Below, in pieces: positions 17,879 through 56,772 of a stretch of DNA of 64,000 nt (positions are counted from its first letter, which is position 1; every line of letters begins with the position of its first letter). The DNA is from Eledone cirrhosa (lineage: Eukaryota). Made by a program: the position numbers and the translations under genes. The notes under the pieces were generated by a model, which ran no database searches, had not been told where the DNA came from, and saw only the letters and a list, made by a program, of their open reading frames with translations. The DNA lies in NCBI GenBank assembly GCA_964016885.1, contig CAXHJY010000575.1:44790-108789 (forward strand), read 5' to 3'.

Positions 17879-19010
17879 TTATTAATTTGTTATTTGTTTT
17901 CTGCCCTCTTCACTGTATCACCTTATATTTATTTTAAGTTGAGATAGATTATAACACAAACACATTGAATATCTCATCTTAACATCTTGTATCATACCAA
18001 TCTATCCAACATATTCTGACCTTGAGATTGGTTATAGCACACACACACACACACTTTATCCTACGTTATTTCTCACTTCTCCATATACATTATCATTACT
18101 TTTTCACCAATCTCTCATTTACTCTTTATTCTTTATTCTCTATTTATTTATTTATTTTCAAATTACACAAATTATATTAATTATTTTATTTTATTATATT
18201 ATTTATTTATTTTCTGTTTTCTTCATTTATTGCCTTATATTTCTTCATATACATGAAAGAACCCCCCCCCCCACCACCACCACCACCACTACGATGGTGG
18301 CGGGAGGGATGAAGAAAAAACACAAACTGGATACTTCTAAATTGTTAGCAGCAGCAAGATATAAGCTGACCACTACAACAACAACAGTACCAAAATAATG
18401 GTGGAGGTCAAATGTACTGAACAATAGCAGACAAAAACACTACAGGGAGCCTCACCCCAGAAAGAATTCTATAGACTTCTGACTGAGGAATGCTCTCAGA
18501 ACTGAACAATGGGAAGTTTGACACTTTTTTTGTTATTTTGTTCCTTTAACACCTTGTCCCTTCTACCATTTTATCAATTTTAAGCTAACTCCAACAATAA
18601 CAACACTTAGAATGAGGAATGTTCTAAAAACTGACCAATGAGAGGAGAATGGGGACATGTGACACAAAAATTCGTTTGTTTGAATTCATATGACTCCAGT
18701 TCCCCAGTGAATTAACAACCCAACAAGGAACTGGGCATATCAGAGTATTGACAATATCATACACCTAAACAACATATGTACTTGTCTATACCATACTAAT
18801 TCAAACTGTCTGAAGAGGTCACAGCCAAAGATGGCTGTCACTGAAATATATATAGCAGTAATAAACGAAGCTAAATTTTAATCATTTGACTTTTATTTAA
18901 CTTTATTTTACACTACTCCGGAGTAACCAAACCAACCTGCGCACTTCGTCGAGTGCTCCAGCCTGCATACTGAGGTGTTGGTATACAACCAACATAAACT
19001 CAAAATCTAT
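17879..19010 (+). repeat. PLE-1 upstream pLTR (direct repeat)
   Basis: Near-identical to 22016-23165. Confidence 0.92.
18805..18859 (+). ncRNA. Type-I hammerhead ribozyme in PLE-1 pLTR
   Basis: ACTGT-CTGAAGA-GGTCACAGCCA(aaga)TGGCTGTCACT-GAAA-TATATA-TA^-GCAGT. Confidence 0.88.
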
Positions 19011-19061
19011 CTAGCTCCCACACGGGTTGAGCGCTTCAAACAGTAGCGGACCTAAGTCACT

Positions 19062-21732
19062 ATGGATAAACTGGCAACCTTAGCGTCACTGAAGGACATC
19101 CCCCTACCTGATAAACGAGAATACACCAGTGATCTCATCAAGAGTACGGACTCCCTCATCCGTAGGATGAGATGGAAGGCGTTCCACTTCGAAAGAGGAA
19201 CGCAGAAAACTACAAACACAGAAAACATGGAGTACCTTTTTCGATCAAGGAGGAATCCCCCCACAACAGACTAATGGAGGAGTTTGAAAACGAGATGATT
19301 AACATCATATCCAACCTCAAATTCTCCGGAAACCCAACCAGAAGTCAGGAGTACCTCAGACACCTGAGAAACCGGATTACAGTACTTAAAGGGACAACTG
19401 GAATACTTGTCCATGCTGACAAAACAAACAACCTCTACAACATGAACACTGAACTGTACAATAAGCTAATCCTCAGGGAACTGAGGAAGTGCTACAAAAA
19501 AACACCTGGATTTACCCTGGATGAGATCAATGCCACAGCTTACAGGATTATATCCAGAATCGGCATAGAGGACAGGACGGCCCCATACCAACCAAGGGAG
19601 CCGCGGATTACCCTTAAAGACCACAAGTCAAACTTTGAGTCCGACCTCCCTGTCAGACTAATAGCCCCCTCCAGATCTGACCTAGGGATCGTCAGTAAAA
19701 GAATACTGGATAGGATTTTGCCCAAGCTTCGGAAGAAAACCAAATTACAGCAATGGTCATGCACGAGAGAAGTAATAGAATGGTTCAAAATACTGCATGG
19801 GAAAAGTAGGACTAGCTTTATACAACTGGACATCGCAAGCTACTACTCCTCAATCTCACCCATAGTACTTAATAAGGCCCTATTTTTAGCGATGTCCAAT
19901 ACGGACCTAACCCGAGAGGAGGTGAGCATCATCCACGCCGCAAGAAAGACCTTAATCCGCTTCGATGGAGACCTTTGGACCAGGAGTGATTGGCCAAATA
20001 ACTTTGACATCACGATGGGCTCCAGCGACTCAGCGCAGGTAACGGACCTGGTTGGGCTCTACCTGCTGAAGCAGATAAAAGATGAAATCCCCTGCCTGGG
20101 CGGCGGATTATATCGTGACGATGCTCTATTCACAGTACATGACCACAGCACCAATATGTTGGAGGGTATGAGGAGGCGTATTCGCCATTTCTTTAAGAAC
20201 CAGGGGCTCAACATAGAAATAGACCCAAATAGGAAGGTAGTTAACTTCCTAGCACCACCCTAAACCTGAACACCGAGCAATACTACCCCTACCACAAGCC
20301 CAACGAGAAACTCGTATATGTTAACGCCAAATCAAACCACCATAGATCCATAACCAAGGCAGTGGTGAAGAGTGTCTCGGACAGGATCTCCAGCCTGTCC
20401 GCAAGTAAAGAAATATTCAACAACCACGCGGAATATTACAACGCAGCTCTAAAGAAGGCGGCACATAGACAAAATATAACATATAGTCCGAAAAGCTGGG
20501 AGGTGGATAGCCCAACCGACACCCACAACCGCGTTGCCAGAGGGGGGAGGGCGAACCCTAACAATACAGGTAGAGCAGAATCAAATAGGCACCATGTACC
20601 AGACACCACCACACGGGCGGTGAGGACTAGTGCGCTTGACCACGAGATGGAGCACAATATGAGTAGCAGTCTCAGGCGTGACGCTAACTACCCCAAGACG
20701 GACAACCCCAACCGCAGGACACGTGGGGGGAGGAAACGGGCGACCAGCCCACGATAGATCTCCCGGGGCGGACAACAACCACCCCACAAATCCGGGCCGC
20801 GAAGATAACAAAAAGTATAGAGCACAAAAGGGAAGCAACAGTGCGGAAACCACCAGCAACCCAACAAATCTCCAACAAATCACGAAGCCCCCAACCCACA
20901 CATATAGGAGACACCGACAAATCACGTGGTACAACCCACCCTACTCAGCGGCCCTAAAGAAAAGCTTGGCCCGATTATTCTTTGGAGCACTTGACAAATG
21001 CTTCCCGAGGGACCACAGATACCACAGAATCTTCAACAGACACACTGTGAAGCTTTCGTATTCCACCACGAGAAATTTGGCCCAACACATAGCTAGCATC
21101 AACAGAAGTAGGCTTAAAAACCACACACAACCAGAATTGGCAATACAAACACTCAGCAGAACCATGTGAAAGGAGGGAAGGGGGGACCCAGAGCCCACCC
21201 AAGAAACACAAACAGACCCAAGGACCCCCCACCGAGCATGGGGGAAGACCAACATGTAACACATAATGAGAACCCTAATCTAGGGACGCAGAGGCCGACC
21301 ACCTTCTGCAACTGCAGAAATCCCGAATCATGCCCCCTTGGTAATGAATGTCTCAAGAAGAACCTAGTGTATGGTTGTAGGGTTAAAACCCCCAACTCCG
21401 AACACCTCTACATAGGAGCCACATCAAAGAGCTTTAAGGACCGCTGGTACAACCATCGCCATTCATTCAAGAAGGAGGCCAAAAGGAAAAGCACAGCTCT
21501 CTCCGACCTGATCTGGAAGCTTAAGCTGGACAGGACCCCATACTCTCTGGCCTGGTACATAATCAGGAAAGTACCACCCGATAAAGGGGGATCTTGCATA
21601 TGCAAACTATGCCTGAACGAGACCCTCGAGATACTAAGAGGTGGAAGCGGCCTGATAAACCTCAGAACCGACTTCTTCGGGACATGCAGACACCTTAGAG
21701 CCGGGACCTTTCTCAAAATATATGGACAGTAG
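19062..21732 (+). pseudogene. PLE-1 reverse transcriptase / GIY-YIG endonuclease ORF, frameshifted (about 4 lesions)
   Basis: Frames 19062-19274, 19172-20263, 20362-20757, 20678-21169 and 21166-21732 join into one protein colinear with the intact 819-aa ORF at 50868-53327. Motifs: ADKT, QLDIASYY, MGSSDSAQVTDLVG, GLYRDD, WYNPP, CNC-x5-CPL, LVY..LYIG, CKLC. Confidence 0.92.
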
Positions 21733-22015
21733 CAACACAAGAAGATGTGAACTCCCCTCAAGCTATAGGGACTTCTACAGAACATGAAAACACCTCTCGG
21801 CCAGATCTCCCTCAAGCTATATGGGCAATAACAACACCCTAGGTTGTGAACTCCCCTCAAGCCACAGGGAACAACCCAGGCGGAGCAGACACCATGATAG
21901 CCTAGAGATAGAATCGGACACAGCCATAATAATTTGGCCAACATCTATAACACAAACACTTTTAATTTACCAGATTTCTGACTTTCAAGTTCCAATCTTA
22001 AATCTTGATTTCTCT

Positions 22016-54810: not shown

Positions 54811-55640
54811 TATATGTATATATATATATATATATATATATATATATATATAATATATATATATATATATATATATATATATATATGTATATATATATAT
54901 ATATATATGTATATATATATATATATATATGTATATATATATATATATATATGTATATATATATATATATATATATATATATATATATATATATATATAT
55001 ATATATATATATATATATATATATATATATGTATATATATATATATATATGTATATATATATATATATATATATATGTATATATATATATATATATATAT
55101 ATATATATGTATATATATATATATATATATATATATATATATATATATATATGTATACATATATATATATATATATGTATACATATATATATATATATAT
55201 GTATACATATATATATATATATATATATATATATATATATATATATATATATATATTTATATATGTATATATATATATATTTATATATGTATATATATAT
55301 ATATTTATATATGTATATATATATATATATATATATATATATATATATAATATATATATATATATATATATATATGTATATATATATATACATATATATA
55401 TATATATATATATATATGTATATATATATATATATATATATATATATATATATGTATATATATATATATATATATATATATATATATATGTATATATATA
55501 TATATATATATATATGTATATATATATATATATATATATATATATATATATATATATATATATATATATATATATATATATATATATATATATATATGTA
55601 TATATATATGTATATATGTATGTATATATATATATATATT
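54811..55640. repeat. (TA)n microsatellite
   Basis: Read directly from sequence. Confidence 0.98.
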
Positions 55641-55652
55641 AAAATATAAGTA

Positions 55653-56568
55653 TTTCTATCTCTATCTGAGCGTGTCCAAAATTTGTTACTGAAGTTAATG
55701 AGAGTTCTTCTGGCTGTTAAAATTATATCTATTTCATTTGTGGTTAGATCAGTATGCTTATAAGCATATGAGAGGGCCTTATTTAGAAGTTTAGGTGTTA
55801 TAGAAGAATAGTATCTAGTAATATCCATCTGGATGAATTCATAGTTTTTCTTATCTTCAATATTCGTGTACCATTCAATGACCTCGTTTGTATTTTTCCA
55901 TAAGCTCAAACTAGATCTCAATTTAAGAGTGGGTAATATTCTATCTATGATGTTTTTACTGATTACTCCTATATCCGATTTCGATGGAGCAATCAGTCTA
56001 ACTGGCATCTCTTTTCTTTTATGATCTTTCAGGTTAATCCTCGGCTGTCTAGGTAAGAATGGCTCAGTTCTTCCTTGTATTCCTAGATTGGTAATTAACT
56101 TATAGGCTTCTTCATTAATTTCAGTAATTTTTGTAATTTTTCCTAAGTTCTTTCAAAATCAGGTCGTTATATTCATTTTGCTTATCCATATAAATTATTA
56201 GTTTTGTCAGATTTAACCAATACTTTGTTAACATTTTTTATTTCAGTGATTTTAGCTTTTAGAGATCTGAGGTATTGGTGACCTATATATGGGTTTTTCC
56301 TAAATTTAATTTTTTTGATTATGCCGAGCATTTCTGTTTCAAAAACCTCCAGAAGTTTGTTATATGGAGGATTTTTTCTTGATTTAAACAAAGATTTAAA
56401 CTGATTGTCGTTGGTTTTTCTTTCAGCATCTTTCTTTTCGAAATGAAAAGCTCTCCATCTTAATCTTCTAATAAAAGAATTTGTCTGTTCTATAGTTTTC
56501 TTCATGTATTCTTCATTTGAAGGTATAGGTATATCTTTGAGGGAAGTCGGGAAGTTTAAGAAATCCAT
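55653..56568 (-). pseudogene. PLE-4 second-unit RT N-terminal part, truncated at (TA)n
   Basis: Same 128-aa N-terminal frame and [12 protein letters not shown].. frame as 59681-58543. Confidence 0.88.
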
Positions 56569-56772
56569 ATTTATAGAATATGCAATCTATTGTATAGAAA
56601 AGCGCTCAACCAGTTGGGAGCAATATATATATTAAAGTGTTAAACAATATTCAATGATTATATCAAAGAGTTTTACAGTAGATTGGAAGCACTCAACGGG
56701 AAAATAATTTTCTGGAGTTATTAATATTAAATATAAGTATTAATAAAATAGATGTTCTTTTGATCAATTACA

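Follow-up and report, generated by a model that had tools for sequence, protein, structure and literature searches.

We analyzed a 64,000-nt stretch of the Eledone cirrhosa genome (contig CAXHJY010000575.1; hereafter the window) and found that its Penelope-like elements (PLEs) carry a bulged hairpin between the hammerhead and the start codon, with two copies per leader, here termed hairpins A and B in 5′-to-3′ order. The motif is conserved in relatives outside the window, and its arms covary. Element copies end just 5′ of hairpin A or B (sites A and B), in places with the first bases repeated; nearly all scored two-arm insertions have one end of each kind (the A/B rule), and their arms vary in length independently. 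We consider it likely that each hairpin is a putative binding or positioning signal on the sense RNA, that the reverse transcriptase (RT) starts 3–9 nt upstream of it, and that, when (TA)n DNA is broken, one of the two ends is primed at A and the other at B. A sequence-only reading of the window had proposed a cis-acting RNA element involved in RT binding, priming, or translation. Our results support such an element, and the location of copy ends 0–9 nt 5′ of either hairpin favors RT positioning.

RNA signals that place an RT are already known as a kind, while a doubled signal situated 3′ of two internal starts, each used once per insertion, is new. Our search of the open literature, which did not extend to subscription papers, Repbase notes, or image-only supplements, turned up neither the motif nor the A/B rule. 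The finding bears on how PLEs pick internal starts and on why the inverted pseudo-long terminal repeat (pLTR) has a one-sided tail. Published accounts differ, invoking endonuclease (EN) resolution (PMC8557442), antisense self-priming (PMC3846280), or internal initiation without a named signal (PMC11167929). A motif of 20–40 nt kept among proteins with ~35% identity, base-level start predictions, and the A/B rule make the question testable by a few point changes.

A doubled hairpin in PLE leaders

The motif follows the consensus RCUC-[stem/loop]-UN-GAGY-RCUY. The hairpins that the sequence-only reading had listed for PLE-1, PLE-2, and PLE-4, and at two supposed orphan islands, were recovered at their positions (Table 1); that of PLE-3 is also present, but its start is one base off the one given. 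The claim of two hairpins per leader holds as one layout common to all three complete leaders: a hammerhead, ~55–65 nt, hairpin A, and then hairpin B, starting 97–166 nt after the start of A. Extra copies of the motif lie at 23070–23109, 28788–28827 (−), 53497–53530 (−), and 59804–59831 (−). The bulge, described as a fixed pyrimidine pair, is indeed 2 nt long but reads U-N (UU is commonest, then UC, UA, and UG), and the upper stem, described as free in sequence, is so except for its first pair, which is restricted to C-G or U-A. An unpaired, conserved 3′ tail (RCUY) and a TA-rich tract 3–9 nt upstream had been missed.

Outside repeats, the window has 15 occurrences of the strict motif versus 3.46 expected, with a maximum of 8 in 100 first-order Markov controls. 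Because several of the 15 matches are copies of one element, tests outside the window carry more weight. A protein alignment with 60 of 120 listed homologues led to 77 metagenome contigs and 17 contigs from metagenome-assembled genomes (MAGs), the relatives being ~30–42% identical. Leaders were scanned in the 57 of these 94 contigs where the match begins near the N-terminus. The strict motif was present within the 330 nt upstream in 36 of the 57, compared with 1.84 after base shuffling and 6 on the reverse strand. The outside leaders mostly contain two motifs, ~55–75 nt apart, with the 5′-to-3′ profile of a UA-rich tract, RCUC, a C-G or U-A pair, a free stem-loop, U-N, GAGY, and RCUY.

Across the 3-Gb genome of E. 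cirrhosa, one sub-pattern of the motif gave 33,120 matches, and the reversed control pattern gave 59. Among the first 30 of the 33,120, a hammerhead core lies within 260 nt upstream in 21, upholding the proposed association with PLE hammerheads; a TA run lies within 260 nt downstream in 23, and the start of an open reading frame (ORF) in 2. The outside-leader, Markov-control, and reversed-pattern counts rule out a chance or microsatellite artifact. From DNA alone, the motif can flag Hydra-clade elements and non-coding passengers of theirs (33,120 matches or more in this genome), and it supplies a rule for setting their boundaries. Rfam gave no credible match for the PLE-1 leader, where the best E was 2.7, or for five loci from outside the window, and an Rfam scan of the window gave none in 150 of its 213 rows. 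No relative was found in the viral contigs searched.

Covariation of the hairpin arms

In arms picked on sequence only, Watson–Crick pairs occupy the first, second, and third upper positions in 65, 42, and 39 of 71 cases. The same positions average 38.8, 20.2, and 18.8 in shuffles, and the observed counts were reached by 0 of 5000 shuffles each. The excess is confined to the register with a 2-nt bulge. Registers with bulges of 0, 1, or 3 nt were tried and lay at or near chance, the 3-nt register having one pair at 26 versus 17.8 (73 of 5000 shuffles).

A covariance model was seeded with 14 equal-length hairpins, and its pair counts lean towards the given structure. It yielded 147 matches (E up to 10) in 95 sources, with 99.2% of cells in the alignment paired and 48 double changes versus 16.2. 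The pair above the bulge accounts for 45 of the 48, and three lower-stem pairs for one each. Covariation is significant both in the sequence-picked arms and in the model alignment. The sequence-only reading had placed it in the lower stem; the closing pair does alternate (A-U 88 and G-C 34 among 136 distinct matches in the E. cirrhosa genome), but the lower stem is almost invariant.

Copies end beside the hairpins

Copy ends were mapped in the same genome using queries that stop 40–52 nt upstream of hairpin A, which avoids bias towards the hairpins, with 30 loci for each of three families (90 in total) drawn from the best 30–40 matches per query. Seven loci read through into the ORF. All of the remaining 83 end 0–9 nt 5′ of hairpin A (42) or hairpin B (41), and all join TA-rich repeats; the junction cannot be placed more closely than a few bases within the overlapping TA, and the 83 include three copies from the window itself. 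The counts at A and B are similarly split in each family (PLE-1, 14 + 15; PLE-2, 12 + 14; PLE-4, 16 + 12). In other organisms, on contigs with two leader copies, 15 of 20 non-contig-edge rows diverge 1–13 nt ahead of a hairpin, in many cases passing into a run of the TA type. The remaining five rows comprise one near an edge, one inner junction, two of a diverged copy, and one diverging at 21 nt.

An alternative is that the hairpins are mainly translation or packaging signals, for instance in feedback by the PLE protein, with the ends following from the neighboring TA-rich tracts. The ATG lies 20–35 nt past hairpin B in three window families and at a comparable distance in outside leaders, as a translation signal would suggest. 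However, TAT/ATA sites number 8, 27, and 30 in the three leaders, and only 2, 5, and 11 of them, respectively, have a hairpin close by; as most such sites are unused, AT content alone does not set the ends. Translation also leaves unexplained hairpin A, the A/B rule, and the presence of both hairpins in a non-coding 257-bp derivative described below. While translation is possible as a secondary role, as the main function we find it very improbable, the least likely of the explanations considered.

Of 18 PLE-2 ends at site A, 7 carry the 9-nt unit adjoining the hairpin two to six times over. These repeated units match the expectation for a TA-ended primer re-aligning at initiation, by analogy with the eel element UnaL2 (PMC1636434). 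In the family of the copy at 47065–47230 (L121–L150), B ends often bear (TC)n runs before (TA)n, likely a second case of start slippage.

The repeated units also bear on whether the hairpins act in DNA, where the endonuclease would recognize them in an intermediate or donor copy and cut 5′ of them, the ends being cut sites from resolution. In the account of Craig et al., the tail arises through EN-mediated resolution (PMC8557442), and the D. virilis EN needed the tail to recognize plasmid DNA (as cited in PMC11167929). GAG-YR-CTY is near-palindromic, and the counts of G-U versus A-C (17 vs 12; 4 vs 2) do not fix the folding strand. Nevertheless, the repeated end units require polymerase slippage at that end, an A-to-B spacing ranging from ~55 to 166 nt is hard to square with a staggered cut, and tail boundaries are RT starts in the one PLE assayed in vitro (PMC11167929). 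We judge action in DNA improbable. Each hairpin lies 3′ of the end point; under RT positioning, it is thus absent from the complementary DNA (cDNA) of that site and would have to work from the side of the template.

One A end and one B end per insertion

Arm pairs were scored in 60 longer stretches as outward-facing arms with both ends at a site (A class, −22 to +2; B class, −14 to +2). Forty insertions at least 92% covered by the element were kept after removal of overlapping loci and one likely local duplicate. Of these two-arm insertions with both ends classed, 39 of 40 are A/B (binomial 4e-11). Seven further PLE-4 pairs, partly covered with an incomplete reference, are all A/B, bringing the count to 46 of 47. 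Inner junctions differ among insertions, which marks them as separate events.

The arm with the greater upstream reach is A in 17 and B in 12 of 29 measured arm pairs. Five B arms are confined to the tail, and the inner points fall within 60 nt of each other in only 4 pairs. Because arm lengths and inner points are independent, neither arm is a fold-back copy of the other. The inner junctions overlap by 1–8 nt in 17 of the 29, and some B arms are longer than one unit length, which points to a multimeric, circular, or re-joined template. Arms of the same insertion share alleles in 10 of 10 cases for PLE-2 (one site) and 13 of 13 calls for PLE-4 (two linked sites), whereas discordance between insertions is ~0.47–0.49; PLE-1 had no polymorphic site common to the arms. 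This sharing fits a single template.

The arm pairs speak to a further alternative, in which the hairpins are stop signals, like telomerase-type template boundaries, on a self-primed antisense template, and the fixed ends are where synthesis stops. Antisense self-priming has been proposed for PLE inversions (PMC3846280), boundary-limited re-copying also yields repeated end units, and the predicted protein model matches telomerase structures best. Snap-back, however, predicts a copied arm and a near-palindromic junction. With either arm the longer and the inner points mostly far apart, snap-back could account for the inversion in no more than 4 of 29 pairs and was rejected. One fixed and one ragged end per arm usually marks a start at the fixed end, as established for non-LTR elements, and the hammerhead is on the sense strand. 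We therefore hold the hairpins to be highly improbable as stop signals.

Several short B arms (L035, L045, L283, L098, L112, and L113) stop ~10 nt or less from the 3′ edge of hairpin A, as if hairpin A, or protein on it, blocked synthesis.

A proposed insertion route

If the hairpins position the RT, insertion might proceed as follows. The GIY-YIG domain would cut both strands of the (TA)n target, and two RT units, probably a dimer, would be placed on hairpins A and B. The 3′ ends of the target would pair with the UA-rich tract 5′ of each hairpin and be extended towards the 5′ side of the RNA, with an occasional slip-back repeating the first few bases. On a template that is multimeric, circular, or re-joined, copying would continue past the hammerhead and enter the ORF, and the two inward-growing cDNAs would join by a few bases of microhomology. 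The product would be a head-to-head inverted pLTR with the tail, corresponding to the A-to-B interval, on one arm only.

More tentatively, and with the odds slightly against it in our estimate, programmed twin priming could be the normal insertion route, a protein dimer on two motif copies in one transcript sealing a double-strand break from both sides. Any RNA with two hairpins (~100 nt) would then be writable into (TA)n DNA. If this is true, slippage repeats at a hairpin-anchored start would provide a living model for the origin of telomerase-type repeat addition.

A number of observations weigh against positioning by the hairpins. The strict motif is absent from 21 of the 57 outside leaders; many of these, though not all, are cut short or rearranged, and variant forms, for example with a UA bulge, occur in some. 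Taken one at a time, the hairpins are weak in thermodynamic terms (z −0.04 to −3.2), and PLE-1 hairpin A folded alone is not the minimum-energy structure. The near-invariance of the lower stem means that covariation comes mostly from the closing pair and the upper stem, and the G-U versus A-C counts given above bear on this reading as well. Sampling by best match makes the mapped copies young ones. Two copies, both outside the 83-copy sample, end between the hairpins: L289 and the PLE-1 insertion at 28709–29449, whose left end breaks the rule by falling at a TATA 29 nt before hairpin B. One insertion is A/A (L055). The A/B count omits a small number of two-arm insertions in which one of the outer ends matches neither site (L277/L278, L296, and L308); it also omits many copies with a single arm, where the ragged end is in most cases fused straight to (TA)n. 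Finally, successive active subfamilies would also give allele sharing between arms.

Miniature and passenger copies

The two hairpins described as orphan islands turned out to belong to truncated or miniature copies of two further PLE families. If a B-ended arm leaves hairpin B behind, the parents of these copies should carry hairpin B just past the point where the orphan ends, and both parents do, 3–5 nt beyond it. Patterns for the two parents gave 325 and 85 matches, most at the expected spacing, with controls at 0. Among the 15 + 15 parent loci read, the second hairpin follows, and a related ORF was present in 12 and 15, respectively.

The 25.8-kb orphan fits an A-ended inverted arm and a B-ended arm into less than 200 bp, and a first look gave 1,807 candidates of this kind. 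Its parent has no canonical hammerhead core within 330 nt. In dozens of copies of this family (25790–25980; L151–L180), both arms stop ~60 nt upstream of hairpin A, a common stop that may be the 5′ end of a short linear template. In the parent of the 47065–47230 family, the loop region of hairpin B is ~90 nt, showing that the upper part of the hairpin tolerates large inserts. The PLE-3 copy in the window runs ~100 nt past hairpin A into (TA)n without hairpin B, as expected of a B-ended arm.

A 257-bp tandem non-coding derivative (L367/L368; G000:C1:27,009,634-27,009,920) keeps both hairpins and the first codons, making it a candidate passenger element with a minimal cis region.

Element identity and protein

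Judging by protein motifs, hammerheads, and (TA)n targets, the window elements are Hydra-clade PLEs. The published features of this clade are an RT with a C-terminal GIY-YIG, DKT, a CxCx5C linker, no CCHH, a hammerhead, and (TA)n targets (PMC8557442), and the window elements share these protein motifs, the hammerheads, and insertion into (TA)n. In the 819-aa ORF of PLE-2, the RT (YRDD at 354) precedes a C-terminal GIY-YIG with its nuclease core near 695–715. RWR at 38, a conservative variant of RWK, and DKT at 123 lie upstream, while CxCx5C occurs in the linker at 678, CxxC at 776, and CxH at 804. By inspection, no cysteine pair (CCHH) lies within the GIY-YIG core. The PLE-1 frame reads RWK by eye. 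A Pfam search of the 819-aa protein gave nothing above cut-off. Its predicted model (pLDDT 85.8) has a fold matching RTs, with telomerase RT (TERT) structures matching best. Asn-rich, low-confidence inserts lie between RT and nuclease at residues 485–534 and 630–674, as reported for rotifer PLEs. The hammerhead core is canonical in PLE-1 and PLE-4 and variant in PLE-2, and copy ends join TA-rich runs. In the hammerheads of PLE-2 (53576–53624, −) and PLE-3 (~43920–43965, +), CCGA replaces CUGA in the core.

The sequence-only reading had pointed towards Naiad elements, a lead that the C-terminal GIY-YIG and Hydra-clade motifs do not bear out. Membership in Naiad/Chlamys was rejected, as those elements have an N-terminal GIY-YIG and no canonical hammerhead, whereas here the nuclease is C-terminal and hammerheads are present. 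Three 9-letter motif strings searched against the non-Hydra sequences in the supplement of the Naiad paper returned only three ORF-like chance matches.

Among published consensus sequences, Hydra-1_Ajap starts at site A, two bases before hairpin A, and has both hairpins; Hydra-2_Amil, Hydra-2_Ajap, and Hydra-1_Crog contain the motif or variants of it; and the first 140 nt of Hydra-1_Obim show no strict motif by eye. In the main text of PMC8557442, the words "hairpin" and "stem-loop" are absent. Separately, these animal retroelements are encoded at 17 loci (L258–L274) within records of bacterial genomes (MAGs and symbiont assemblies), most likely as host DNA in the bins.

Features of the window

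The PLE features are collected in Table 1. On the plus strand, positions 1–15,210 hold a retrozyme-like tandem array of a 463-bp unit that contains a type I hammerhead; the array's end is (TA)n. The array gave no match to the hairpin covariance model, and another PLE type or signal may therefore mobilize it. From their motifs, we take 30771–33467 (+) to be an intact-looking 898-aa APE-RT LINE ORF, 61162–63386 (+) a broken RTE-like LINE, and 45187–45648 (−) a mariner-like transposase fragment.

Table 1. PLE features in the window, by family; start sites are putative.
Feature	Position	Strand	Remarks
PLE-1 type I hammerhead	18806..18860	+	core CUGAAGA at 18810
PLE-1 hairpin A with RCUY tail	18915..18958	+	hairpin 18915-18954; start site A 4-8 nt 5′
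PLE-1 hairpin B with tail	19014..19036	+	hairpin 19014-19032; start site B 3-9 nt 5′; ATG at 19062
PLE-1 RT-GIY-YIG reading frame	19062..21732	+	frameshift-broken
PLE-1 3′ pLTR	22016..23168	+	contains hammerhead plus hairpin A 23070-23109; terminates at site B, fused to (TA)n (L033)
PLE-1 inverted two-arm insertion	28709..29449	.	right end at site A
PLE-1 fragment	63406..63634	+	ends at site A
PLE-2 hammerhead	53576..53624	-	variant core CCGAAGA, by eye
PLE-2 hairpin A	53497..53530	-	
PLE-2 hairpin B	53348..53364	-	20 nt before ATG
PLE-2 intact 819-aa ORF	50868..53327	-	telomerase-like RT and C-terminal GIY-YIG
PLE-2 inverted arm	54362..54811	+	hairpin A 54651-54684; ends at site B, 5 nt before expected hairpin B (L063)
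PLE-2 other outer end	49306..49341	-	site A; four tandem copies of 9-nt unit adjoining hairpin A (L064)
PLE-3 hairpin A	44014..44047	+	G-U in lower stem
PLE-4 hairpin A	56691..56718	-	hammerhead core at 56817; second copy 59804-59831
PLE-4 hairpin B	56604..56621	-	ATG at 56568; second copy 59717-59734 with changed 5′ arm
Fifth-family miniature two-arm insertion	25790..25980	-	inverted arm ends at site A; direct arm with hairpin A 25841-25864 ends at site B
Sixth-family 5′-truncated B-ended copy	47065..47230	-	long hairpin A 47115-47195

Comparison with known systems

In L1 twin priming, both target ends reportedly prime on the RNA, giving an inverted product with short microhomology at the inner junction; the event is said to be occasional, with the second primer annealing at a variable place. 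In the PLEs, by comparison, neither site varies, the event happens routinely, and in most cases one region is copied by both arms.

The closest biochemical parallel is the Poseidon PLE of Anolis (PAc), in which the RT starts at two internal sites flanking the tail, both strands are cut and extended, RNA 3′ of the sites is needed (to +172), and a dimer is predicted (PMC11167929). PAc resembles the window PLEs in having two internal sites with the tail between them and in its AT-rich targets. It differs in that its starts lie within the ORF (+85 and +111–119) "in an AC-rich stem loop", and the accessible text names no conserved motif, no signal repeated per site, and no A/B rule (PMC11167929). 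By eye, the template given in its Methods lacks the strict motif, and a hairpin begins just 3′ of the second site. The layout of an inverted pLTR with a tail on one arm has been described already (PMC3846280; PMC8557442).

The 3′ stem-loop of UnaL2 is likewise a bulged hairpin beside a start site, recognized by the protein of its element, as we infer for the PLE hairpins; UnaL2 also shows slippage repeats at initiation and use in trans by short partners (PMC1636434). Its signal, however, is single and lies 5′ of the start at the RNA's 3′ terminus, while the window PLEs have two signals in the 5′ leader, each 3′ of an internal start or end point. The PLE hairpins thus depart from the stringent-LINE form, a single stem-loop 5′ of a 3′-terminal start repeat.

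Telomerase RNA and the DRT10 non-coding RNA share with the PLEs a related RT, a primer that aligns to a short tract beside a structured element, and repeat addition through re-alignment (PMC12632851). A sense-strand hairpin 3′ of the fixed end would qualify as a template boundary only if the hairpins were stop signals on antisense RNA. The telomerase template boundary lies 5′ of the template and stops synthesis (PMC12632851), whereas the PLE hairpin lies 3′ of the start on the sense strand, and synthesis continues for kilobases.

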